Notes: a model not told the origin generated them from the sequence alone. A DNA stretch of 10,947 nucleotides from a virus (IMGVR_UViG_2648501669_000001), one strand, 5' to 3'; shown: positions 1 through 10,947, counted from the stretch's first letter. A program made the numbers and translations.

Positions 1-20
1 TAGTGTGGTAGGTGGTGGGT

Positions 21-159
21 CTGATGTCCGGCGGTGCTTTTGCCGTTACGCACCACCCCGTCAGTAGCTGAACAGGAGGGACAGCTGATAGAAACAGAAG
101 CCACTGGAGCACCTCAAAAACACCATCATACACTAAATCAGTAAGTTGGCAGCATCACC
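21..159 (-). mobile_element. Truncated IS1 copy (terminal inverted repeat plus first 139 bp), inverted, with its outer terminus abutting phage DNA at 160
   Basis: Positions 21-159 are the exact reverse complement of 10611-10749, which begins GGTGATGCTGCCAACTTACTGAT, recognised as the IS1 end. Positions 1-20 do not continue the IS1 sequence. Confidence 0.85.
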
Positions 160-339
160 GAAAGTGCGTTATCTGCAATGACGATAAAGGGTAATTCGTT
201 TACCTACGAGTCAATTGCGGTTTTACAACAACTGAAAAGGGATTACGAAAAACAACTCGTAAAACTCATTCAGCAAGAACGGCGCAAGGCTGGCAATTAC
301 TCACCAATTACACCGATTAAAGTACGCTTAACTCGATAA
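160..339 (+). other. Possible 3' remnant of an upstream gene truncated by the IS1 insertion (perhaps terminase large subunit C-terminus), or a small 53-aa ORF from ATG 178
   Basis: The frame is open from the IS1 junction to TAA at 337-339, ending 9 bp before the portal start. There is no convincing Shine-Dalgarno before ATG 178. It is below the ORF-track length cutoff. No family was recognised. Confidence 0.3.
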
Positions 340-348
340 GGATTTAAC

Positions 349-1872
349 ATGTTTAATTTTTTCAAACGCAAAAAAGATATGCCCGTGAATCCGGTTAAGA
401 AAATCGGTATTCGCCAACACCGCAAATTATTTGTAGATCGCAAGATTGAAGAATTTACCAAAGACTTACATAAACGCTCTTTGGGATTGGTTGAAAGCGA
501 CCGCATTGAAGGAAGTATGGCGCGTAATGTCATCACTGGCAGCATTAACAGCGCGATTAAGGGGTCCGCATCACGTCTATACAATCAAGGCCGTTATCTT
601 GCGTTAAACACTTCTATTGGCTCCCGTTATTGCCAACACGTTATTGATTCCGTGGTAGGTACTGGCTTACAGCCTCGAACCTTCGTTATGAAAGGGGAAA
701 AGCTGGACGCAACCACTAACACCGCTATTGAGAATGCTTTTTGGCGTTGGGCTAGCTCTCAGAAACGATTCTCGCGCATCGGAAAGATTAACTTCCTTGA
801 ATGCTTAAAGTTGATGGAAAAAGAGCGCGTGATGGGTGGTGATGCGTTTCTGGTACTCCATGAAGATGGTAAGGATCTGCAAGTATCCATTTATGGTGCG
901 GATTGTGTTGATTGGTCAGATCAGCGCACCTTAGATAACGGTAATGTCGTTTACGCTGGCATCGAATATGAAGATGAAAAGCCCGTTGCATATTGGTTTA
1001 GGCGTCGTGACCTGTTTACTCAGTCCTTTACTGGCGAACGTGTACGAATCCCGGCGGAAAGAGTGCTGCATTACTTTATCCCTGGTACAGCCGACGCATT
1101 ACGTGGTATTACTGATTTCTTGCTAATAATCAAAGATATAGCTCATCTTGAAGCGTTCCGCGAGACTGTAATAATCGGTAAGCGCGTGCACGCAAGCAGC
1201 ATGGCCTTTATCACAAGCGATAAAGAAAATCAAGATTCATTTGATGTTGGTGAAGATGACACGGAAAACTATCAACCGCCAACAATGATCACTGACTTCG
1301 AACCGGGTACTATCAATATACTGGAACCGGGGCAAGACGTTAAAACGGTACAATCAACTCAAGGCGGCGATGATTTCGAAAAATTCAATGAAGCAATGCT
1401 GACTTCTATTTCTATGGGTCTGTCTAGCTTTAAACAAGCTCTTACAGGAGATACAAGTTCTATTAACTACTCATCAGCAAAATTCGGTCATAATATTGAA
1501 TCCGCTCGCTTCAAGACGCATCAAGATCGCTTAGTTGATACTGTTATTCTTCCATTATTTGAGGCGTTTTTACGTCACGCGGTAATTAACTCAAAAATCA
1601 ATGTTCGCATGACGCAGATCGATTCTATTTTGGATGCAACGACAATTATTAGACCTCGCGTTACGTCTATTGAACCGATCAAAGATATTCAGAGTGAAGT
1701 TCTGTTAATAGAAAGCGGATTGAAGTCTAAAGCTCAGGTCATTATGGAAATGGGTCAAGATCCGTCTCAGGTCTTTAAAGAAATTGAGGCAGAAAAACAC
1801 ATGCTAAATACATGCGTCGTGAGTGAGGGTGAGACTGAAAAAGAAAAATCTCCTGATACTCAAAATGAATAA
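349..1872 (+). CDS. Phage portal protein (lambda gpB-like family)
   Basis: 507-aa ORF with AAGGA Shine-Dalgarno 7 nt upstream. Size and position (first gene of the head module, directly before the protease-capsid gene) fit a portal. The C-terminal region (LLIESGLKSKAQVIMEMGQDPSQVFKEIEAEK) resembles the lambda gpB C-terminus as I recall it. Confidence 0.8.
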   Translation: MFNFFKRKKDMPVNPVKKIGIRQHRKLFVDRKIEEFTKDLHKRSLGLVESDRIEGSMARNVITGSINSAIKGSASRLYNQGRYLALNTSIGSRYCQHVIDSVVGTGLQPRTFVMKGEKLDATTNTAIENAFWRWASSQKRFSRIGKINFLECLKLMEKERVMGGDAFLVLHEDGKDLQVSIYGADCVDWSDQRTLDNGNVVYAGIEYEDEKPVAYWFRRRDLFTQSFTGERVRIPAERVLHYFIPGTADALRGITDFLLIIKDIAHLEAFRETVIIGKRVHASSMAFITSDKENQDSFDVGEDDTENYQPPTMITDFEPGTINILEPGQDVKTVQSTQGGDDFEKFNEAMLTSISMGLSSFKQALTGDTSSINYSSAKFGHNIESARFKTHQDRLVDTVILPLFEAFLRHAVINSKINVRMTQIDSILDATTIIRPRVTSIEPIKDIQSEVLLIESGLKSKAQVIMEMGQDPSQVFKEIEAEKHMLNTCVVSEGETEKEKSPDTQNE

Positions 1873-1914
1873 CCCAACGGGGCGCAATGCCCCCAATAAT
1901 TTTCAAGGTGATCT

Positions 1915-3969
1915 ATGACAACAAAACAATTCCGTCGTAGTGTTGCGGTAGATACCCCTGATTTTATCGAAGAAAAAGACGAACGAATTATTGAATTGGC
2001 TTTCTCAAGCGAGGCTCCTTATACACGTTATTACATGAATCAGGACGGCGAGCAAGTCGAATTAAAAGAGATTCTCGTACACGATGAATCAGCGGTTGAT
2101 CTATCCGTTTTAAACGAGACTAACGCAAGTCTTCTGTTTAATCACAATCTGGATCTTCATATCGGCAAGATTGTTCCTGGCTCCGCTCGTATTGACGAAG
2201 ACCGTGTAGGTCGTTGCCTTGTCCAATTCTCCAAAGTAGGCCAACTGGCTAATGAATGCTTTGAGAAGGTAAAAGAGGGAACACTTTCACAAGTTAGCGT
2301 CGGTTATAACGTTCTTGATGGCAAAGCCGATTTTAACAAAGGGATCTATTATGTTACACGCTGGCAACCTTTCGAATGCAGTCTTGTAACGTGTGCCGCA
2401 GATCCATTTAATGCGGGTGTTGGACGCTCTCTAAATACAGACAACGAAATGATTGTTTTGGAGGGTGAACAAGTGGAAGACGAAATTAAAGATACTCCGG
2501 TCGAAGAAATTAAACCGGAAGATGAAGAAAAACGTTCCGAAGAAGAGAAAGAGGAACAAGAAAATGAAGAAATTGATTCCGATTCTGGAAATAGTGCTGA
2601 CAGTGGCGAAGATGTGGAAGAACCGCAAGAAGTAACGCCAGAAGAAAAAGAAGAACGTTCCGAAGATGAACCGGAAGAAACAGAAGAACTAAATAAAGAT
2701 ACAGACGAGAACGACGAAACGGAAAATACATCCGAACCAGTCGAAGAAGAAAAGATTGAAGACGAAGAAAAACCGTTTGAACGTTCTCGCGAAGATACCG
2801 CCGAAATTCGTGCTATCGGAAAACATCTAAATATCTCCGAAGACGTGATTGAAGCTGCAATTAAAGATAGTGCCGTGACTATTGAAAATTTTAAAGAAAA
2901 AGCACGCGCACTAAATACTACCGAATCTAAAACTTTTGTTAAAGGAAAAATTACCATGACCGATACCATTAAAACTCTGGAATCCCGTTTCGATCTTAAT
3001 AAAGCTGTACGTGCAATCGCAGAGGGTAAAGCCCTGACTGGCGCAGAAGCTGAATATTCTCAGGAAGAAGCACGTAAAGCCGCAGCGCGTGGTCGTGCGC
3101 AGCGTTCTAACTCCGTATTCATTCCGGCGTCCGCTCTGCGTGCTAGCCAGAACATGGAATCTCTGAAACCAGTAGTTGGTGAAGAAATCCGCCATGATTG
3201 CTTCGTTGATATGATCATGGAACGTTCTATTCTGGGTAAATTGGGTGTGCGTACCATTAACGCAACTGGTCCTGTTTCTCTGCCGTCTCTGACTTCCAGC
3301 AATCTGGAAAACTTCGGTTTTGTTGCAGAAGGTCAATCCGCTGGTGAAGGTACTATTAAGTTTGCAGCGCAGCCGATGACTCTCAAGACTTTTAACGGAA
3401 TTGTTCCTGTAACGCGTCAGGCTGCAATCACACTGCCCAATATTGGCGCTATCGTTGGTGAGCACATGCTGAAACACAGTGCTATCGCTCTGGAAAAAGC
3501 GATTCTGTCCAATGCTGCTAACACTAACGCTCGTGATGGTCTGACTAAGATCCTGACCGACGCTGGCAAAGTTAAACAGATTGATTGGACCTATGCCGAG
3601 TTCCTGAAACTGGTAGCTGAACTGACCGACAAAGGTTATAACGAAGCGGATCTGGCATTTGCTACCCGTGGTGTTGTTAAAGCTGAACTGGCAGCGCAAC
3701 TCAAAGCAGCTAATGTTCCGGGCTTCCTGGTAGAAGGCGATAAACTGGTTAACCGTCCGATCTATGGCTCTGGTGTAGTTGCTCAGGATACCATGCTGTT
3801 TGGTGACTTTAGCTCCCTTGTTGTTGCAGACTTCGGATCGCTGGAACTGGATTGCGACGATACCACAGGTCGCGCGGCTGGCAACCTGTACTTCCGTGTA
3901 TGGGCTGATCTGGATTGGGCTGTTATGGACCATAGCGCACTGACCGTAGTTCAGAAAAAAGTTGACTGA
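1915..3969 (+). CDS. Prohead protease - acidic scaffold/delta linker - HK97-fold major capsid protein fusion
   Basis: 684-aa ORF with AAGGTGA Shine-Dalgarno. The N-terminal ~170 aa look like an HK97-type prohead protease. Residues ~183-300 are a hyper-acidic low-complexity linker (EEKRSEEEKEEQENEE...). The C-terminal ~290 aa are HK97-fold capsid-like (e.g. GDFSSLVVADFGSLELD). It sits immediately after the portal. Confidence 0.8.
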   Translation: MTTKQFRRSVAVDTPDFIEEKDERIIELAFSSEAPYTRYYMNQDGEQVELKEILVHDESAVDLSVLNETNASLLFNHNLDLHIGKIVPGSARIDEDRVGRCLVQFSKVGQLANECFEKVKEGTLSQVSVGYNVLDGKADFNKGIYYVTRWQPFECSLVTCAADPFNAGVGRSLNTDNEMIVLEGEQVEDEIKDTPVEEIKPEDEEKRSEEEKEEQENEEIDSDSGNSADSGEDVEEPQEVTPEEKEERSEDEPEETEELNKDTDENDETENTSEPVEEEKIEDEEKPFERSREDTAEIRAIGKHLNISEDVIEAAIKDSAVTIENFKEKARALNTTESKTFVKGKITMTDTIKTLESRFDLNKAVRAIAEGKALTGAEAEYSQEEARKAAARGRAQRSNSVFIPASALRASQNMESLKPVVGEEIRHDCFVDMIMERSILGKLGVRTINATGPVSLPSLTSSNLENFGFVAEGQSAGEGTIKFAAQPMTLKTFNGIVPVTRQAAITLPNIGAIVGEHMLKHSAIALEKAILSNAANTNARDGLTKILTDAGKVKQIDWTYAEFLKLVAELTDKGYNEADLAFATRGVVKAELAAQLKAANVPGFLVEGDKLVNRPIYGSGVVAQDTMLFGDFSSLVVADFGSLELDCDDTTGRAAGNLYFRVWADLDWAVMDHSALTVVQKKVD

Positions 3970-4098
3970 ACTCCTGTAGAACCTTCTGAACCTTCCCCCG
4001 ATTCGGGGGAAGAAAATCTGATTCCTAAACCGGAAGAAGAATCCCAGACGGTTACGGCGAAAGCCACAGCAAAACGAGGCCGCAAGCCTAAAGAATGA
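3970..4098 (+). other. In-frame open extension after the capsid UGA stop (42 codons ending ...VTAKATAKRGRKPKE); candidate readthrough product
   Basis: Same frame as 1915-3969, with no stop codon until TGA at 4096-4098. The stop context is UGA-A. It contains the 36-bp core repeat 4051-4086 that is identical to 9994-10029. Confidence 0.4.
4051..4086 (+). repeat. 36-bp exact direct repeat, copy 1 (gttacggcgaaagccacagcaaaacgaggccgcaag); encodes VTAKATAKRGRK
   Basis: Identical to 9994-10029. The flanking sequence is also similar at DNA and peptide level. Confidence 0.9.
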
Positions 4099-4103
4099 TA
4101 ATT

Positions 4104-4130
4104 AGCCCTGCCTAGTGCGGGGCTTTTTTG
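4104..4130 (+). terminator. Rho-independent terminator downstream of the capsid gene and its extension
   Basis: GC-rich hairpin agccctgc / CTAGT loop / gcggggct followed by TTTTTT. Confidence 0.6.
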
Positions 4131-4159
4131 TATGTAAATACTCCATAAAGGGGGTAACT

Positions 4160-4450
4160 ATGTTCAAATTATCAGAATCACAATTATCAAGAATGTTTAA
4201 GAGTGCTCCTGTATTTTCGGTGGAAGGTGGTAAATCAATTCGTGCTTATCATGAAATTACTACTACCGACGAATCGGGGGTAATGACAGAAACCGAATTT
4301 CTATTCTGTCGTGAGGGAGACTTAAATCAGGGTGATATTGTCATTGTAGAAAACCAGCGTTTCAAAGTTCAATACGTTAAGCGCAATGGTGATAATACCA
4401 CTGATTGCTTTATTACTCTGGCAGGGGGTACACATGCTCGCTACCGTTAA
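4160..4450 (+). CDS. Small head-tail connector / head completion protein (putative)
   Basis: 97-aa ORF from the internal ATG at 4160, preceded by AAAGGGGG Shine-Dalgarno. The longer ORF-track start at 4115 lies inside the upstream terminator. Size and position (between capsid and tail terminator) fit a connector. No strong motif was recognised. Confidence 0.5.
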   Translation: MFKLSESQLSRMFKSAPVFSVEGGKSIRAYHEITTTDESGVMTETEFLFCREGDLNQGDIVIVENQRFKVQYVKRNGDNTTDCFITLAGGTHARYR

Positions 4451-4856
4451 TAATATGCCTAGACTGAAAATCAAACGCGCCTTGCAAGATATTATCGAAC
4501 AAGATTTAGGTCTGGCTTTAAACGTAGAACAAACTCAGCAAGGTTTTAGTGATGACGTGGTTTGTTGGATTACTGGCATGAATGAGACTTACACTAGGGT
4601 CCGTGGTGGTAATGCAATGCAAGCTGAATGCGTTATCGAAATGCAATTATATTCTCAGATTCATGAAACAAAAATCCATGAGGGTATTTGCCAGATAATC
4701 CAGATTCAGCCGGATAACCCACGTTTTAAAGATTTGGGCTTCTCTATTTCAGATATCACTCCAGTAGCCTCTAATACCGATTATGACGATGATTCTAGTG
4801 ATGGGGGTATCGTTGGGACACTTAGCCTTAAATTTTCTTATCTAGCGCGTTTTTAA
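4434..4856 (+). CDS. Tail terminator protein, lambda gpU-like (putative)
   Basis: 140-aa ORF from ATG 4434 with AGGGGG Shine-Dalgarno, overlapping the previous gene by 17 bp. VCWITGMNETYT...ECVIEMQLY and the acidic C-terminal TDYDDDSSDGG resemble lambda gpU (VAVYLTGAEYT...ELHIEVFL...YDYRRDDDAG) as I recall it. Confidence 0.55.
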   Translation: MLATVNNMPRLKIKRALQDIIEQDLGLALNVEQTQQGFSDDVVCWITGMNETYTRVRGGNAMQAECVIEMQLYSQIHETKIHEGICQIIQIQPDNPRFKDLGFSISDITPVASNTDYDDDSSDGGIVGTLSLKFSYLARF

Positions 4857-4865
4857 GGGGTAATA

Positions 4866-5699
4866 ATGAATATTACACAAGATAACTTAGATATTTTCAC
4901 TGGATCACATGTTGAAGTGTCGATCTCTAACCAGATAGACAATCAGGTCGACTTTTTCGATCCTAGCTTTAGTTCTATGGAGAACATCGCAGCATTCCCT
5001 ACGCTAACCGAATCCACAGAGATAGAAACTCTGGAAGAGTACGATCAGGACGCTACGGGGAAACTTGCTGGTTATCGTAGACTGGAACCGACAACACTCA
5101 CATTAAACCGTGTTCTTGACGATGAACATCAAGCAATGTTGATGAAAGCGGTAGAGGATAAAACACCTTTACGCTTCCGTATGTTCTATGTTGTGAACTC
5201 TGGCTATAGTGCTGCTAACACTGGTTACTATGTCATCTATGACGCTTATGTCACTAGTCACAAAACCCGTGGCGCAGATAACAAAGCTGTAACACTGGAA
5301 TTTAAACTTGAACCAGATGGCGGGATTTTGGCAAGGGGTATTGCTACCGAAGGCCGGATCTTACGTCAGGGTGATTTTGGTATCGGTGCTGGTGTAAATC
5401 CTTTCAGTGGTCCTATTGATAGTGAATCTCTGACAGGAAACCGTTTCGTAACTTACAAGGGAACTGCTAGCACTAACCCTTATGGTGCTGATACATCGTT
5501 AATTCATCTTCAAGCTAATGAGCATGGCGCATGGCAATTAACCTGTAATACTTCTGGCGCACCGCGTTTACGCGTCCGAAATATTCAGGAAAACGGTAAA
5601 TCTGAATGGATTAAAGTCTATTCTACAAACGAGAAACCGACACCTAGCGAAATTGGCGCAGTGGCTAAGACTGACCGGATCGATTTCGGCGAATACTAA
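4866..5699 (+). CDS. Major tail (tube) protein with a C-terminal fibre-like domain
   Basis: 277-aa ORF with AAGGGG Shine-Dalgarno, placed after the gpU-like gene as in the lambda Z-U-V order. The N-terminal ~135 aa are paralogous to ORF 9445-9915. The C-terminal ~70 aa are homologous to an internal segment of the tail fibre (shared KPTP-x-EIGA motif). Confidence 0.6.
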   Translation: MNITQDNLDIFTGSHVEVSISNQIDNQVDFFDPSFSSMENIAAFPTLTESTEIETLEEYDQDATGKLAGYRRLEPTTLTLNRVLDDEHQAMLMKAVEDKTPLRFRMFYVVNSGYSAANTGYYVIYDAYVTSHKTRGADNKAVTLEFKLEPDGGILARGIATEGRILRQGDFGIGAGVNPFSGPIDSESLTGNRFVTYKGTASTNPYGADTSLIHLQANEHGAWQLTCNTSGAPRLRVRNIQENGKSEWIKVYSTNEKPTPSEIGAVAKTDRIDFGEY

Positions 5700-5729
5700 G
5701 GATTCTCCTACCTAAATAAAACATGACGC

Positions 5730-5763
5730 GGGGAGGTTAACGCCTCCCTTATTCCTGTTTTAT
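5730..5763 (+). terminator. Putative intrinsic terminator after the major tail gene
   Basis: Hairpin GGGGAGG / ttaacg / CCTCCC followed by a T-rich tract (ttattcctgtttta). The T-run is interrupted. Confidence 0.45.
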
Positions 5764-5779
5764 AGTGAGGTGATTCTAG

Positions 5780-8700
5780 ATGCAATCAATCCAATTTAAA
5801 CGCACACAAACGGCTGGTAAAAAACCAACGCCGGAACAATTATCACAGGGTGAATTGGCTATTAACCTTGCTGATCACGTTCTGTATACCAAAGATAAAA
5901 ATAACGCAGTAGTTCAAATCTCTGTTTCTCCAGAAAAACACGCTGAACTTAACACGAAAGTAGACCAGAATAAAACTAGCACTGACCGTGTTATTGCTTC
6001 CAACAAACAAGAGGCCGCTAATAATCTGGCTAGTGTTAAAGCTGAACTGAATCAGACTATTACCGCTAAAGACACCGCAACCAATAAGCGCATTGATGCT
6101 ACCAACACCACTGTTAGTAACTTAACCCAGACAGTTACGGCAAATAAAACCGATGCCGACACTAAGATCAATAACCTTACGGGGACCGTATCTGCGAATA
6201 AGACCGCAATTGAAAGAACCGTTGCCGCAAACAAATCTGATGCAGATAGCAAACATGCAGCTTTAACGAAAACGGTCACTGACAATAACACCGCGATTAA
6301 CAACAAGGTTAATACCACTAACACCAACGTTAGCAACTTAACTAAAACTGTTACTGCAAATAAAACCGATGCAGATAACAAAATTTCTAGCTTAACTAGC
6401 ACGGTTGCAGCTAACAAAACAGCGATTGAAAAGGTCGTTTCCGACAACAAGAAAGATGCTGATACTAAAATCAGTAACCTTACTGGCACTGTGAATAGTA
6501 ACCATACCGCTATTAACAACAAGGTAGACCAGAACAAATCATCGACCGATGCCGCAATTACAGCCGCCAACAAGCGAATTGATGGTATTGAAGGTAGTGC
6601 TAACGCAGCATATATCAAGAAGAACACAAAGACCTATCACGGCGCGTATTTGTATAGCAAGACTGGTAACTATCTGGAAGATTCAACCGCGAGAGATCTT
6701 AATTACTTCGGTGCATTCCGTACCAATGGTCAAGATGGACTCATGGATCTAACCCTTAACGTTCCTCACTCTTCCGGTAAAGCGCATGGTCGAGGATTTA
6801 CTTTCCGTTATGCGTCTGGCGGATCTCGTGTTGAAACCTATGGTTTTGATGCTCAGGGACAAAAAGCGTTTAGCTATAAAATGTATCACGAAGGGGATAA
6901 ACCGACTCCTGCTGAAATTGGCGCATATACCAAAGGCGAAATTGATAAGATGTTTATTAAAAATGTCACAATGTCTGTTCCTTCTGGTAGTGAATCCCGT
7001 GCTTATTTCAAGATTGCTACGGCTACGATCCCACAAAATGGTCGTATGGTAATGCTTCGTATCTTCGGTGGTAATGGTTATAACGTTAACTCCTATGATC
7101 AGGTTGATTTCCTTGAAATTGTTATCCGTTCCGGTAACAATAACCCGAAAGGCGTTAGTATTGCTGCTTATCGTCGAAACTCTTTGAACGTTCATCAAGT
7201 ATTTGCGGTTAATACTTCCGGTGATAACTACGACATTTACGTTAACTACGGTCGTTATACTGATAACGTTATTGTCGAATATGGTAAGACTAGCGGTGTT
7301 TCACTGACTGTTCATGACACCCCAGCTATGACTAACGTTAAGCCGTCTACTGGTGTTACAGATGGACGTGTTATTACAATGTTCAACACCGAAAACAAGG
7401 CCGGAACGTTGATGTTTGATAATAACGGACAGGGTACATATGATATTGTCAGTTTGAATAACGATTCAGGTACTGGTAAAAAATATCTTCGTAAATTCCG
7501 TAGTAAAGCCGCAGAAACAATCTGGCATGAAACTGTTCAAGGTAACGTTTATCGTTTAGCGACTGGTACTACCGATTCTAGCGAAGTTCTACGAATCACT
7601 GGTCGCACCATGTTTACTGGTAAAGGTGTATTTGATGCCGGACAAAACGTTCTTAGATTAGAGCGTCCTAGTAATCAATCAAACTATATTGAATGGCAAG
7701 ACCGCCGCAATGGTGCTAATGCTCGTCAAGGTTGGATTGGTTTTGGTAGTGCTGAAACAAATAACTTCCAATGGTATAGCGATCAGGGGAAAAACTCATT
7801 TCAGCTAGAAGCTAACGGTCAATGCTCTATTACCACTGGTGCAACTAAAATTGTATATACAAACGGCGAGTATGTAGCTGCTAACTCAAATGCATTCCGT
7901 ATGATTTACGGCAATTATGGTGCATTTTGGCGCAATGACTCCGCAAAAGTTTATCTTCTGTCAACGGCTGAAAACGATAAGTTTGGTGGTTGGAATACTT
8001 ATCGACCATTCATTTATGATCTGACTTCCGGTAACGTTCAATTAGGCGGTGATGGTAACGAAGATGCATTAACGTTAGAACGTGCAAGCCGTGCCGCTCG
8101 TTTTAGTAATGACGTTTACATTAAGAAAGGTTTTTTGACTTTCGACGCTGGGCGTTCTGGATCGCGTGATTATATTCGATTTAATCATTGGGGCGATAGC
8201 AACAACGCCCGTGATAACGTTTTATACCTCGAAGACAGCAAAGGTCGCCATTTCAGCACCGAACGTAATATGGCTACAGGTGGACTAAAGGCATATTTCT
8301 TAGGTGATCTTGAAGTTGCTGGTCAAATGAGATGGGGTAAGAATACCGGACAATCTAGCTTCAATATTCGTGCATGGGGTAATGATACTCGTAAACAAGT
8401 ATTAGAATGCGCAGATGAAAGCGGCTGGCATTTCTACACACAGCGTGCTGGCGGTCCTGGTACTACCGCAATCGAGTTTAGCGTAAACGGTAAAATTAAC
8501 GCTCCCCAACTGTCTATTAGTCAGGATGCAACCATTCCTAAGTTTAATAGCGGTTTTGGTGTTGGTGTTGCTAACGGATTGGGTGGAAATTCTATTGTTT
8601 TAGGCGATAGTGATACTGGATTTAAACAAAACGGTGATGGTGTCCTTGATACCTACGCTAATAACGTTAATGTTGTTCGTCACACATCTGGCGGCATTAC

Positions 8701-9388
8701 CTTTAACCGTCGTGTTGTTGTTGCTAACAAAAATGGTTTAGGTTATTCCGATATCTCTGATGTAACTCGTGACCGTGCTCCATTCTTGGTTAACATGGAT
8801 AGTATTAAGGGGTCTGGTGCATATTTCCCTATTATCGCTGGCTATAGTAACTTAGGTGATGTTGGTTATCGTCAGTCCTTCGAGTTTGGTTGGACGGGTA
8901 GCGGTTCGACTCACGGTTGGCGTACTGGTATTATCCGTATGCGTGGCGATAACGCCAACGGGCAGCAAGCACGCTGGGAATTTACTATGGATGGTGACTT
9001 TACCGCAGGTCGTAACGGTAGCTTTAACGATGTTTACATTCGCTCTGACTCCCGTTTGAAGATTAACAAGGAAGAATTACAGGACGGCGCATTAGAGAAA
9101 GTAAACTCCCTGAAAGTCTACACCTACGATAAAGTTAAATCTCTTTCAGATGACACAGTGATTAAACGCGAAGTAGGTATTATTGCTCAGGATCTGGAAG
9201 AAGTGTTGCCGGAAGCAGTAGGTATTCAATCCACCGAAGATCCAGAACAACCGGAAGCAATTAAGACTATTTCTAACTCTGCTGTTAATGCCTTGATTAT
9301 TAAAGCTATTCAGGAAATGGACGCCAAATATCAAGCTAAGATTGAAGCATTGACTAAAGAGATTGCCGAACTCAAAGCAACTAAATAA
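5780..9388 (+). CDS. Tail fibre protein with a repetitive shaft and a C-terminal intramolecular chaperone (peptidase S74-like) domain
   Basis: 1202-aa ORF with GAGGTGA Shine-Dalgarno. The N-terminus has a tail-fibre anchor-like motif (KKPTPEQLSQGELAINL). Tandem T/N/K-rich repeats form the shaft. GLGGNSIVLGDSDTGFKQNGDGVLD and ADESGWHFYTQR resemble the conserved distal region of P2 gpH-type fibres as I recall them. The C-terminus has an SDSRLK (S-D-x-R-x-K) autoprocessing motif followed by a coiled-coil-like tail. Confidence 0.85.
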   Translation: MQSIQFKRTQTAGKKPTPEQLSQGELAINLADHVLYTKDKNNAVVQISVSPEKHAELNTKVDQNKTSTDRVIASNKQEAANNLASVKAELNQTITAKDTATNKRIDATNTTVSNLTQTVTANKTDADTKINNLTGTVSANKTAIERTVAANKSDADSKHAALTKTVTDNNTAINNKVNTTNTNVSNLTKTVTANKTDADNKISSLTSTVAANKTAIEKVVSDNKKDADTKISNLTGTVNSNHTAINNKVDQNKSSTDAAITAANKRIDGIEGSANAAYIKKNTKTYHGAYLYSKTGNYLEDSTARDLNYFGAFRTNGQDGLMDLTLNVPHSSGKAHGRGFTFRYASGGSRVETYGFDAQGQKAFSYKMYHEGDKPTPAEIGAYTKGEIDKMFIKNVTMSVPSGSESRAYFKIATATIPQNGRMVMLRIFGGNGYNVNSYDQVDFLEIVIRSGNNNPKGVSIAAYRRNSLNVHQVFAVNTSGDNYDIYVNYGRYTDNVIVEYGKTSGVSLTVHDTPAMTNVKPSTGVTDGRVITMFNTENKAGTLMFDNNGQGTYDIVSLNNDSGTGKKYLRKFRSKAAETIWHETVQGNVYRLATGTTDSSEVLRITGRTMFTGKGVFDAGQNVLRLERPSNQSNYIEWQDRRNGANARQGWIGFGSAETNNFQWYSDQGKNSFQLEANGQCSITTGATKIVYTNGEYVAANSNAFRMIYGNYGAFWRNDSAKVYLLSTAENDKFGGWNTYRPFIYDLTSGNVQLGGDGNEDALTLERASRAARFSNDVYIKKGFLTFDAGRSGSRDYIRFNHWGDSNNARDNVLYLEDSKGRHFSTERNMATGGLKAYFLGDLEVAGQMRWGKNTGQSSFNIRAWGNDTRKQVLECADESGWHFYTQRAGGPGTTAIEFSVNGKINAPQLSISQDATIPKFNSGFGVGVANGLGGNSIVLGDSDTGFKQNGDGVLDTYANNVNVVRHTSGGITFNRRVVVANKNGLGYSDISDVTRDRAPFLVNMDSIKGSGAYFPIIAGYSNLGDVGYRQSFEFGWTGSGSTHGWRTGIIRMRGDNANGQQARWEFTMDGDFTAGRNGSFNDVYIRSDSRLKINKEELQDGALEKVNSLKVYTYDKVKSLSDDTVIKREVGIIAQDLEEVLPEAVGIQSTEDPEQPEAIKTISNSAVNALIIKAIQEMDAKYQAKIEALTKEIAELKATK
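6101..6530 (+). repeat. Tandem in-frame coding repeat in the fibre shaft (two ~72-aa units built from ~12-aa sub-repeats)
   Basis: Unit A (TNTTVSNLTQTVTANKTDADTKINNLTGTVSANKTAIER...TAINNKV) and unit B (TTNTNVSNLTKTVTANKTDADNKISSLTSTVAANKTAIEK...TAINNKV). The antisense ORF 6052-6627 is a shadow of this repeat. Confidence 0.8.
9044..9388 (+). other. Predicted C-terminal intramolecular chaperone domain of the fibre, released by autoproteolysis at Ser ~1089
   Basis: SDSRLK at 9044-9061 matches the S-D-x-R-x-K Ser/Lys dyad pattern of tail-spike and fibre chaperone domains (endosialidase, T5 pb1) as I recall it. The domain is ~113 aa, a typical size. Confidence 0.55.
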
Positions 9389-9395
9389 TAAAAGT

Positions 9396-9414
9396 CGGGG
9401 GACTAGTTCCCCCG
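9396..9414 (+). terminator. Perfect 7-bp GC hairpin after the fibre gene (terminator or RNA processing/stability element)
   Basis: cggggga / CTAGT loop / tcccccg, 8 nt after the TAATAA stop. It is followed by an A/T-rich tract but no clean T-run. Confidence 0.4.
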
Positions 9415-9444
9415 TAATAACAATTTTAATTAAGGGGTAATTCT

Positions 9445-9915
9445 ATGTCTCAATTTAATGATATTTTTACTGGTGGTCTGGTAAGTCTGTTCTATCACGC
9501 TGATACCACTAACACCGCTCTCGATCACTCCGGTTACGAAGAAATTAAAGAGTGTGCTGGTTTTCCTGAAACTGGTATCGAGCGCGGTACTGTAGAAGTT
9601 AAATCCTTCTCTTCTCAGTATAACCGTAAGCTGGTAGGGAAACTGAACGTTCCTGATCTGACTCTGACCGTTAACTACATCCCAGGCGATGCGGTGCACG
9701 AGAAGCTCATTAAAGCTGCCGAAGACGGTACTCGAATTCAGATTAAGATTGAATACTATGTTGATGCAGCAAAACAGACTGGTATTCGCACCGCTTTCAA
9801 CGGCTTTATTTCTAAAGTTGCTATGAACGGTGGCGATGAAGAAGTTGTAACCAAAGAGTTTACCTTCGCGGTGGACGGAAAGCCGATCAAACAGGAAATC
9901 TTCACTGCCGGATGA
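9445..9915 (+). CDS. Tail tube protein paralog (tube domain only)
   Basis: 156-aa ORF with AAGGGG Shine-Dalgarno. It is homologous to the N-terminal domain of ORF 4866-5699 (MSQFNDIFTG vs DNLDIFTG; GKLNVPDLTLTVNYIPGDAVHEKLIKAAEDGT vs GYRRLEPTTLTLNRVLDDEHQAMLMKAVEDKT). Confidence 0.6.
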   Translation: MSQFNDIFTGGLVSLFYHADTTNTALDHSGYEEIKECAGFPETGIERGTVEVKSFSSQYNRKLVGKLNVPDLTLTVNYIPGDAVHEKLIKAAEDGTRIQIKIEYYVDAAKQTGIRTAFNGFISKVAMNGGDEEVVTKEFTFAVDGKPIKQEIFTAG

Positions 9916-10041
9916 ACTAACGAAGAACTTCCTTTAATAGAACCGGAACCACTACCGGAACATGAAGCGGTGGGGATTCCAGAAGTAGAAGAAGTTACGG
10001 CGAAAGCCACAGCAAAACGAGGCCGCAAGGCTAAGAATTAA
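9916..10041 (+). other. In-frame open extension after the tube-paralog UGA stop (41 codons ending ...VTAKATAKRGRKAKN); candidate readthrough product
   Basis: Same frame as 9445-9915, with no stop until TAA at 10039-10041. The stop context is UGA-A, identical to the capsid case. It contains the 36-bp repeat 9994-10029. The reading frame here is taken from the ORF track. Confidence 0.4.
9994..10029 (+). repeat. 36-bp exact direct repeat, copy 2
   Basis: Identical to 4051-4086. Confidence 0.9.
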
Positions 10042-10045
10042 TTTT

Positions 10046-10075
10046 AAGCCCTGCCTTAATGGTGGGGCTTTTTTA
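10046..10075 (+). terminator. Rho-independent terminator downstream of the tube paralog and its extension
   Basis: Hairpin aagccctgcc / ttaat / ggtggggctt followed by TTTTTT. It is homologous in position and sequence to the terminator at 4104-4130. Confidence 0.55.
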
Positions 10076-10089
10076 TTGGAGTAATCAAA

Positions 10090-10596
10090 ATGGCAAATGT
10101 CGTTAATAAGCCCGGCTGGGTCGGATCATCTGCTGTATCGGTGACGGGTAAGCGATGGATGAAAGAAGCATTAACAGCTTTAAAAGTTCCGGCTCCGCGT
10201 AATATGTCGGCAATGGCTGGTCGTGGTATGGATACGGTTGTAGCTACTGCATCGTGGTCTACTTCATTGGGTAATAACTGGGGTGTAACTGCTTCAAACT
10301 ATCCTGTTTCCGGTATGCAAAGCAAAGGATCTATGGAGAACCCCGAAAACGTGGGCGTAGGCCGTCTAATTGGCGTTATCGTTGGTCAATTCAATGGCGG
10401 TACTCCTACTATGGCTGTATATCTCCAGAACGGTAGAGCGGGGAATATAACCGTTAATTTGGGTGGTGCTGCTGTCACTGTTCCTTATAACAGTATGCAA
10501 AGTGGTTTTCATTACTACTGGTTAAGCAATCCTCCGGCAGCTTTCCTCAATAACATTAAGAAGACTGGCACTAAGCAGACTTTGAAAATCTCTTAA
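10090..10596 (+). CDS. Hypothetical protein (168 aa), G/S/T/N/W/Y-rich, possibly a structural or receptor-binding accessory
   Basis: ORF with GGAG Shine-Dalgarno and a TAA stop 14 bp before the IS1 terminus. No family was recognised. Confidence 0.55.
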   Translation: MANVVNKPGWVGSSAVSVTGKRWMKEALTALKVPAPRNMSAMAGRGMDTVVATASWSTSLGNNWGVTASNYPVSGMQSKGSMENPENVGVGRLIGVIVGQFNGGTPTMAVYLQNGRAGNITVNLGGAAVTVPYNSMQSGFHYYWLSNPPAAFLNNIKKTGTKQTLKIS

Positions 10597-10610
10597 ATTC
10601 TAAATAAACA

Positions 10611-10850
10611 GGTGATGCTGCCAACTTACTGATTTAGTGTATGATGGTGTTTTTGAGGTGCTCCAGTGGCTTCTGTTTCTATCAGCTGTCCCTCCTGTTC
10701 AGCTACTGACGGGGTGGTGCGTAACGGCAAAAGCACCGCCGGACATCAGCGCTATCTCTGCTCTCACTGCCGTAAAACATGGCAACTGCAGTTCACTTAC
10801 ACCGCTTCTCAACCCGGTACGCACCAGAAAATCATTGATATGGCCATGAC
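10611..10850 (+). mobile_element. Truncated IS1 copy (terminal inverted repeat through the 5' part of insA)
   Basis: Matches the canonical IS1 sequence from base 1 (GGTGATGCTGCCAACTTACTGAT) for ~239 bp as recalled. Mismatches begin at ~10850 and similarity is lost by ~10865. Confidence 0.9.
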
Positions 10851-10884
10851 TGGAGTTGGAAGCCTGCATCTTATACACATCTGA
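10666..10884 (+). pseudogene. insA: Truncated/hybrid insA: first ~61 aa identical to IS1 InsA, then an unrelated 11-aa tail
   Basis: [61 protein letters not shown] matches the InsA N-terminus including the CPSC...CSHC zinc-finger. The C-terminal [11 protein letters not shown] diverges from the InsA helix-turn-helix region. Confidence 0.7.
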
Positions 10885-10947
10885 CGCTCACGACGATCGA
10901 TCTAGAACAAACAACACAGACTCACACCCGCAATCAACAGAAATACA

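Follow-up and report, generated by a model that had tools for sequence, protein, structure and literature searches.

A gp37-like tail fibre with a repeat shaft and a C-terminal S74 chaperone in a rare lambda-like prophage of Escherichia coli

The viral contig IMGVR_UViG_2648501669_000001, a stretch of 10,947 nucleotides analysed over its whole length (the window), carries as its longest open reading frame (ORF) an intact tail-fibre gene. Judged from its sequence, the encoded fibre is essentially a gp37 of the type known from the Krischvirus phages RB49 and Cognac49, with a shaft of 235 amino acids (aa) inserted after the N-terminal joint and an intramolecular chaperone of the S74 type at its end. 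As fibres go it is an ordinary one, carried by an unusual phage, a rare temperate phage or prophage of E. coli that is lambda-like and of siphovirus type. The reading that we consider probable, with modest confidence, is that this RB49-type gp37 would cleave itself, be capped by a short gp38-like protein and be docked on a 277-aa protein encoded directly upstream.

Parts of the fibre

The fibre is 100% identical to WP_032083079.1 of E. coli HCP5S3_I4, which is annotated in RefSeq as 'tail fiber domain-containing protein', and it belongs to the PHROGs family phrog_1699, 'long tail fiber protein distal subunit' (E 2e-128). Four parts can be told apart, namely an anchor (residues 1-55), a repeat shaft (55-272), a long distal region and the S74 chaperone (1089-1202), and the two Pfam domains above threshold are Gp34_trimer and Peptidase_S74 (Table 1). 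The initial annotation of this stretch had described a modular fibre with an anchor, a repeat shaft and a C-terminal S74-type chaperone, and this description is borne out by Pfam, by the repeat analysis, by the alignment of homologues and by Foldseek.

Table 1. Features of the fibre gene and its surroundings, in window coordinates
Feature	Residues	Position (nt)	Strand	Basis or remark
Tail-fibre gene	1-1202	5780..9388	+	ORF list and translation; ATG start, 1202 aa and stop
N-terminal anchor	1-55	5780..5944	+	Break in the DNA of relatives; likeness to RB49 gp37
Repeat shaft	55-272	5942..6595	+	Three copies of a 72-aa unit
Krischvirus (RB49) gp37-like body	290-919	6647..8536	+	72% identity over 639 aa to RB49 gp37
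Gp34_trimer domain	637-746	7688..8017	+	Pfam PF21446, E 1e-27
Distal module of the mature fibre	901-1088	8480..9043	+	Likeness to Cognac49 gp37
Only clearly P2-gpH-like stretch	922-985	8543..8734	+	58% over 64 aa to P2 gpH 477-533, E 1e-16
Tip motif GDFTAGRNGSFNDVYIR	1072-1088	8993-9043	+	End of the distal module
Intramolecular chaperone, Peptidase_S74	1089-1202	9044..9385	+	PF13884, fold, invariant residues
277-aa protein directly upstream of the fibre		4866..5699	+	phrog_158; pairwise alignments
Second hairpin, just upstream of the fibre gene		5730-5749	.	Terminator-like scan
G+C-rich hairpin just after the fibre stop codon		9396..9414	.	Terminator-like scan
156-aa lambda-like tail tube protein, between the fibre and gp38-like genes		9445..9915	+	Pfam Phage_TTP_11/12, phrog_158
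Short-form gp38-like protein, 168 aa		10090..10596	+	Gp38_N attachment domain (4-43), compact beta domain (48-168)

The likeness to RB49 gp37 runs along the length of the protein, with 47% identity over residues 1-51 (RB49 gp37 4-54), 72% over residues 290-919 and 64% over residues 1060-1199. The gene had also been called a mosaic, and rightly so. The DNA matches in the phage collection are confined to 6667-9319 and all fall in gp37 genes of the T4-related Krischvirus and Tequatrovirus (74-86% identity), nucleotide identity being about 80% over 6667-8463, and no near match was obtained in this collection for the window outside 6667-9319. The contractile-tail setting gp34-gp35-gp36-gp37 is not reproduced: genes for gp34, gp35 and gp36 are absent, and the neighbours of the fibre encode a lambda-family portal, an HK97-type capsid, a lambda-like tube protein and a tape measure protein. 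That unrelated phages exchange fibre modules horizontally, and that fibres carry S74 chaperones, is already well known.

The tandem-repeat shaft proposed in the initial annotation is evident at the protein level, where residues 55-270 show 41% identity at a lag of 72 (z = 12 versus shuffles). Sub-periods of 29, 43, 18 and 11 are also found, the 72-aa unit being built of sub-repeats of 11, 18 and 29 residues. In the DNA, Tandem Repeats Finder (TRF) found no tandem repeat in the shaft and a direct-repeat search gave only short scattered matches; the copies have diverged too far at the DNA level for TRF, and the repeat is visible only in the protein. The 218 residues of the shaft comprise no proline, no aromatic residue and four glycines, and their hydrophobicity has a period of 3.6 residues (power 120 versus a shuffle maximum of 45 +/- 11). 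The shaft is most likely a trimeric alpha-helical coiled coil, as predicted from these properties of the sequence. RB49 gp37 is without it, the alignment skipping from residue 54 to residue 71.

Beyond the shaft, the Gp34_trimer region matches the T4 gp34 structures 4UXE and 5NXF and the structure of Mu protein S 5YVQ, and over residues 901-1089 the identity amounts to 74% with Cognac49 gp37 and 55-62% with T2-like gp37 proteins. This part had been labelled a P2-H-like distal region. A BLASTP comparison with P2 gpH gave matches only at residues 922-985, 855-906 (40% identical) and 757-830, which are internal repeat motifs, the first of them reading FGVGxxNxLGGxSIVLGDxDTGFKQNGDGxLDxYAN. Because only residues 922-985 and 855-906 resemble gpH, the label names a short shared motif and not a region, the body and the distal module being RB49-like and Cognac49-like, respectively. 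Membership of the P2 gpH family was rejected, given that BLASTP showed no homology to the N-terminal or the C-terminal receptor-binding parts of gpH.

The same P2-H-like motif is carried by the related locus L007, where a different C-terminus follows. This alternative C-terminus, ...IFKNIQDSNFVPREIWVEDE, occurs in L007:4738-8013 and in L024:8048-9112, and at both loci the S74 domain and an adjacent Tfa-type gene are absent. The motif is suggested to be a recombination joint because the alternative C-terminus branches off after it.

The S74 chaperone and its cleavage site

The peptidase S74 domain for which a Pfam check had been advised was detected, the PF13884 match covering residues 1089-1147 and profile positions 1-57 of 58 (52.3 bits versus a cut-off of 22, E 7e-14). 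The motif SDSRLK occupies residues 1089-1094, with the TCT codon of Ser1089 at 9044-9046 and the codon of Lys1094 at 9059-9061, and the catalytic pair S1089/K1094 has the spacing S-x4-K; the reference pairs of the family are S911/K916 in endoNF, S1264/K1269 in T5 and S587/K592 in MyRF (PMC8326128, PMC4690869). In 19 homologues S1089, D1090, K1094 and R1088 are invariant, as is the S1089/K1094 pair in eight fibres from different elements. The chaperone is 64% identical to that of RB49 gp37, and the C-terminus aligns to S16 gp37 in PDB 6F45_A with Ser and Lys in register.

An AlphaFold2 (AF2) monomer model of residues 1044-1202 shows the fold of such chaperones, with beta hairpins and a long C-terminal coiled-coil helix (helix at model residues 123-158), and has a predicted local distance difference test score (pLDDT) of 81-96 over the chaperone. 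When this model was searched against the PDB with Foldseek, the top 11 matches were all structures of intramolecular chaperones, namely those of MyRF (7DC3), endoNF (3GW6) and GA-1 (3GUD); for MyRF the template modelling (TM) score of the monomer was 0.56-0.64 and the probability 1.00. We regard the reading as an S74 chaperone with high confidence, whether the mature fibre is capped or sufficient in itself.

Autoproteolytic release of the C-terminal domain is predicted. The initial annotation had placed the catalytic serine correctly at 9044-9046, but it put the cut after this residue, with the release of the 113 residues that follow it. In T5 pb1 the mature fibre comprises residues 970-1263 and Ser1264 departs with the chaperone, as does the corresponding serine in the K1F tailspike (PMC4690869), and in MyRF mass spectrometry placed the cut at P586|S587, S587/K592 being equivalent to S911/K916 of endoNF (PMC8326128). 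Because T5 pb1 and MyRF are cut before the serine, the bond expected by homology to be cut here is R1088|S1089, which would release 114 aa. The tip that precedes the cut is conserved across elements as NGSFNDV(Y/Q)IR|SD, and the tip motif is common to RB49, to the fibre of Shiga toxin (Stx) phage 75/02 and to nine of nine related S74 fibres that have a gp38-like gene in their locus.

The gp38-like protein and the two ends of the fibre

The self-cleaving chaperone had been thought to explain that no separate tail-fibre assembly gene lies downstream. No Tfa/gpG-type assembly gene was indeed found downstream of the fibre with Pfam and PHROGs; a gene with a Gp38_N domain is nonetheless present at 10090-10596, and to this extent the statement does not hold. 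The match of its 168-aa product to Gp38_N (PF21721) reaches 56.8 bits versus a cut-off of 25 (E 2e-15), its N-terminus is 58% identical to residues 6-45 of Phi1 gp38, and it has in common with the T-even gp38 proteins the invariant motif GWVGSSA...M..A...MS. In RefSeq it is labelled 'receptor recognizing protein Gp38', both in HCP5S3_I4 and in several of the other genomes. The C-terminal 120 aa are predicted confidently to form an independent globular beta domain, for which a PDB fold search gave no match. A PDB sequence search with the protein gave no match to S16 gp38, and a single-sequence homologue search returned near-identical E. coli proteins only; the distant homologues were reached by profile search.

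In RB49, gp37 carries a self-cleaving chaperone, after the removal of which one gp38 monomer attaches to the tip, and the C-terminal domain of this gp38 recognises the receptor (PMC9569957). The gp37 proteins of T2 and T6 are likewise cleaved and then capped by gp38, the N-terminal domain of gp38 and the tip of gp37 fall into corresponding subtypes, and in the RB49 genome g38 is remote from g37 (PMC3157838). The initial annotation had named a separate chaperone gene downstream in intact relatives as a finding that would speak against it, and the Gp38_N gene is such a finding only in part, in spirit, because gp38 of the T2/RB49 type is an adhesin cap and not a Tfa chaperone. The same distinction bears on the proposal that the 168-aa protein is an assembly helper only, absent from the virion, as is T4 gp38. 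Some database records do name gp38 homologues 'distal long tail fiber assembly catalyst', and strong conservation without hypervariability would suit a helper; the T4-type gp38 chaperones, however, are a family unrelated to the T2-type adhesin (PMC3157838), and the 168-aa protein has the adhesin-type Gp38_N. Moreover, the fibre already has its own intramolecular chaperone, and a globular C-terminal domain of 120 aa that differs between subfamilies, joined to an invariant N-terminus, is the layout of an attachment and a specificity domain. A role as helper only is accordingly given very little probability.

The 168-aa protein probably caps the cleaved tip of the fibre. Because gp38 caps the cleaved tip and reads the receptor in fibres of the RB49/T2 type, the host-range information probably lies partly outside the fibre gene, in the gp38-like gene, and probably not in the receptor-binding part at ~7000-9040 alone, where it had been placed. 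In the model that we favour, three chains would trimerise under the guidance of the chaperone. In the folded fibre, Ser1089/Lys1094 would cut the chain, most likely at R1088|S1089, so that the chaperone of 114 aa would be released and the tip ...GDFTAGRNGSFNDVYIR exposed. The gp38-like protein would then cap this tip in the manner of RB49, T2 and S16, its N-terminal domain binding the tip and its C-terminal beta domain contacting the cell surface. At the other end, the N-terminal 55 residues of the fibre would dock on the gp36-like C-terminus of the upstream 277-aa protein, which is predicted to have a tail-tube fold.

The co-occurrence of cap and tip was counted over 13 related E. coli loci. 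A gp38-like gene is present in all nine loci whose fibre tip is GDFxAGRNG(S/N)FNDVYIR|S and in one of the four without that tip (L007). A short Gp38_N protein is also encoded directly after an S74 fibre in Stx phage 75/02, where it is 45% identical to the window protein over its full length, directly after Gp34_trimer+S74 fibres in phage scaffolds of ~225 kb, and in the same pairing in ParA-carrying elements of ~105-208 kb with GpJ-type tail tips. In some elements two Gp38_N proteins follow one S74 fibre (L012:6800-7306, L015:7992-8816), as two short forms or as a short form with a full GP38 form, and the two may serve that fibre as alternative caps.

With respect to the N-terminus, the DNA similarity of relatives that otherwise have different fibres (H30, H32-H34) ends at window 5943-5949, at residue ~55. 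This anchor is 46% identical to the N-terminus of the fibre of Escherichia phage DCP80. The N-terminal end of gp37 is the part that joins gp36 in T-even fibres. The N-terminal half of the 277-aa protein appears to have a tail-tube fold and to be a paralogue of the tube protein, its residues 10-154 matching the phrog_158 major tail protein and the protein being 29% identical to the 156-aa tube protein. Its residues 207-277 align end to end with residues 426-496 of RB49 gp36 (33%, E 2e-5, a single pair), and the homologue in DCP80 (33% over 266 aa, E 2e-46) extends to 698 aa and closes with the same IDFG motif, and the gene after it encodes a fibre with the same N-terminal motif. A PDB sequence search with the 277-aa protein gave no match. 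These alignments suggest the 277-aa protein as a candidate docking partner of the fibre N-terminus, possibly through a joint of the gp36-gp37 type carried by a tube-fold protein. The DCP80 record (L019, PQ671644.1) is classed as Straboviridae and is 141 kb long; its first 18 kb are a lambda-like head and tail module (portal, protease-capsid fusion, tube, tape measure) akin to that of the prophage studied here, and the record may be a chimeric assembly.

Several points weigh against the capped and docked fibre. The cleavage with its exact bond, the capping and the docking are each inferred. With regard to docking, the similarity to gp36 is weak and due in part to the common fibre motif KPTxxxxG, and a database-wide tblastn search with the C-terminal domain of the 277-aa protein missed RB49 gp36 and found DCP80 and three weak matches, so that the gp36 link rests on one pairwise alignment together with the arrangement in DCP80. 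With regard to capping, the 13 loci are related and the counts are not independent, which makes them supportive but no statistical proof. Between the fibre gene and the gp38-like gene lie the tube gene and a strong terminator-like hairpin (10046-10070); L007 keeps a gp38-like gene beside a fibre with a different, non-S74 C-terminus; and L004, the tip of which (GEFHATGNGNFNDVYIR|S) is similar, is without a gp38-like gene. The 168-aa protein is without PF05268, the glycine-rich GP38 specificity domain, for which Phi1 gp38 scores E 2e-70. It is also 91-97% identical across loci, while the distal 150 residues of the fibre are 17-24% identical between types, and such conservation is unlike that of a hypervariable specificity determinant. 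Finally, the prophage is cut by the insertion sequence (IS) IS1 on both sides in the strain of the window, and the fibre may never be assembled there.

Some of these observations would be equally at home with the self-sufficient fibre of the initial annotation, in which S74 takes the place of a helper, receptor binding falls to the tip itself (~900-1088), as it does in T5 pb1, and the gp38-like gene has another purpose, perhaps in a different tail component. S74 fibres without gp38 are common and functional, the T5 pb1 tip binding the O-antigen once the chaperone is gone (PMC4690869), and both L003 and L004 have an S74 fibre and no gp38-like gene. A distal part that varies strongly next to a gp38-like protein that hardly does so fits specificity in the fibre, and the separation of the two genes and the arrangement in L007 point the same way. 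Against this, homology to gp37 proteins with a known gp38 cap extends over the entire distal part (PMC9569957), the 168-aa protein has as its N-terminal domain the one that attaches to the gp37 tip, the matching tip motif is accompanied by a gp38-like gene in each of the nine cases, and the pairing recurs in unrelated elements. Nor is another S74 or gp37-like fibre annotated in the prophage for the 168-aa protein to bind. On this balance, we consider a fibre that works without a cap unlikely.

The contrast between a conserved cap and swapped distal modules also admits a bolder variant of the capped fibre, which we put forward tentatively and regard as possible but somewhat doubtful. Here the siphovirus-type prophage would bear on its non-contractile tail the distal half of a T-even long fibre. 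The tail-tube paralogue (4866-5699) would be a dedicated adaptor whose C-terminus imitates the end of gp36, by which a gp37-type fibre plugs into a ring of the tail, and the 120-aa beta domain of the short gp38 cap would be a receptor-binding fold unseen in solved structures. If this were true, cap and shaft would share the specificity between them, an arrangement that has not been described for T-even fibres.

The host prophage and comparison with known systems

A chromosomal prophage of E. coli HCP5S3_I4 that adjoins hicAB matches window positions 160-10610 at 100% identity. The genes of this prophage run from a terminase, a lambda-family portal, a fusion of S78 protease and HK97 capsid and the head-tail genes, through the 277-aa protein, the fibre, the 156-aa lambda-like tube protein and the 168-aa protein, to the tail chaperones, the tape measure, a 1258-aa tip protein, the lysis genes and a serine recombinase. 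The element is without a close sequenced phage relative, the best capsid match being 37% identical, and the fibre is present in 21 of 5426 complete E. coli genomes. A capsid-forming phage satellite was considered and rejected, given that the identical HCP5S3_I4 element has a full tail module with tape measure, tip protein and lysis genes.

Both ends of the window (1-159 and 10611-10947) are left ends of IS1 (insA side), inward-facing and inverted, which bracket the prophage segment at 159 and 10611. The left IS1 truncates a gene lying between terminase and portal. The contig departs from the IS1 sequence over its last ~20 nt on the left side and ~100 nt on the right side, and it probably ends in repeats. 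An exact 19-mer, CTTATACACATCTGACGCT, is found at 10870-10888, which we take to be the core of the Illumina Nextera transposase adapter; this suggests that an adapter was left untrimmed at the right end of the window, and hence an artefact of the assembly there. The full 33-nt Nextera adapter was not found with up to 3 mismatches allowed, only the exact 19-mer core being present. The capsid gene at 1915-3969 encodes a 684-aa fusion of S78 prohead protease and HK97-type capsid protein, and in the otherwise identical HCP5S3_I4 prophage it is interrupted by IS2 (L001:17065-18293).

The IS1 ends and this IS2, together with an IS2 inside the fibre gene of the relative L024, raise the alternative that the fibre gene is decaying in a defective prophage and is no longer used. 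The 3.6-kb ORF, however, is unbroken in the window and in at least 11 further relatives, with invariant catalytic residues, and several relatives have a complete and uninterrupted set of structural genes. Decay is, for these reasons, the least credible of the explanations that were weighed.

Downstream of the fibre, the tube gene ends in TGA (9913-9915) and is followed by 41 open in-frame codons (TNEELPLIEPEPLPEHEAV...KRGRKAKN) before TAA (window 9913-10040). Among the loci with a gp38-like gene, this frame was examined in the window and four relatives and is open in all five, being kept in L007 despite a 6-nt deletion that is itself in frame. Where relatives lack the gp38-like gene, the tube gene ends in TAA and a terminator. 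The frame may be a stop-codon read-through extension of the tube protein. In the two loci with S74 fibres and no gp38-like gene (L003:18377-19283, L004:18198-19104), three ORFs of ~100 aa lie between the fibre and tube genes, and for these no PHROG match was found.

None of these results overturns current understanding. They do indicate that the self-cleaving gp37 with a gp38 cap, as in RB49 and T2, is not confined to T4-like phages, and that the gp37/gp38 cassette circulates among temperate siphoviruses, Stx podoviruses and large plasmid-like phages of enterobacteria. For the prediction of host range and for the engineering of fibres, the part that reads the receptor may be a separate small gene that does not adjoin the fibre gene, and an annotation restricted to the fibre ORF would overlook it. 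For the prediction of complex structures and for pull-downs, cheap and concrete targets are at hand in the short-form gp38 domain and the proposed tube-fold adaptor.

Among known systems, P2 gpH has in common with the fibre the 64-aa conserved motif (58%) and a 50-aa repeat (40%); unlike P2 gpH/gpG, the window is without similarity in the N-terminal or receptor-binding parts and without a gpG/Tfa-type gene, and its fibre has the S74 chaperone as C-terminus. T5 pb1 (4UW7/4UW8) is likewise a long siphovirus side fibre with a C-terminal S74 domain in which Ser and Lys are five residues apart, and it releases about 130 aa (PMC4690869). In contrast with the window fibre as we read it, the pb1 tip binds the receptor directly and without gp38; there is no detectable similarity outside the S74 motif, and pb1 is absent from the results of the PDB sequence search. 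The gp37-gp38 pair of Salmonella phage S16 (PDB 6F45) resembles the window pair in the C-terminus of the fibre, which aligns including the Ser and Lys of the cleavage motif, and in the N-terminal Pfam domain of the partner. The tip subtype differs (...AIYCRDLNVS|SDRRIK in S16), and the window partner has no sequence match to S16 gp38 and a beta domain without a fold match in the PDB.

Stx phage 75/02 (Sepvirinae) has an S74 fibre that ends in NGSFNDV(Q/Y)IR|SD together with a Gp38_N protein of 170-185 aa, its 'tail fiber adhesine', and the large ParA-carrying elements similarly have a Gp34_trimer+S74 fibre and then a short Gp38_N protein. In these the two genes are adjacent, whereas in the window the tube gene lies between them, and the collagen-like 75/02 fibre is short, at 494 aa.

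The closest known system is gp37 of RB49 and Cognac49 (Krischvirus, Straboviridae) with its gp38. These are T4-like myoviruses, whereas the window fibre belongs to a lambda-like prophage of siphovirus type and has the 218-aa repeat shaft, predicted to be a coiled coil, after its N-terminus. In place of the missing gp34, gp35 and gp36 genes there is a predicted tube-fold protein with a gp36-like end, and the gp38 partner is a short form of 168 aa without PF05268, the tube gene standing between fibre and cap. Nonetheless, the fibre is 72-74% identical to RB49 and Cognac49 gp37 over most of its length, it has the same N-terminal joint motif, Gp34_trimer domain, tip NGSFNDVYIR|SD and S74 chaperone, and, as in RB49, the Gp38_N gene sits away from the fibre gene (PMC3157838).

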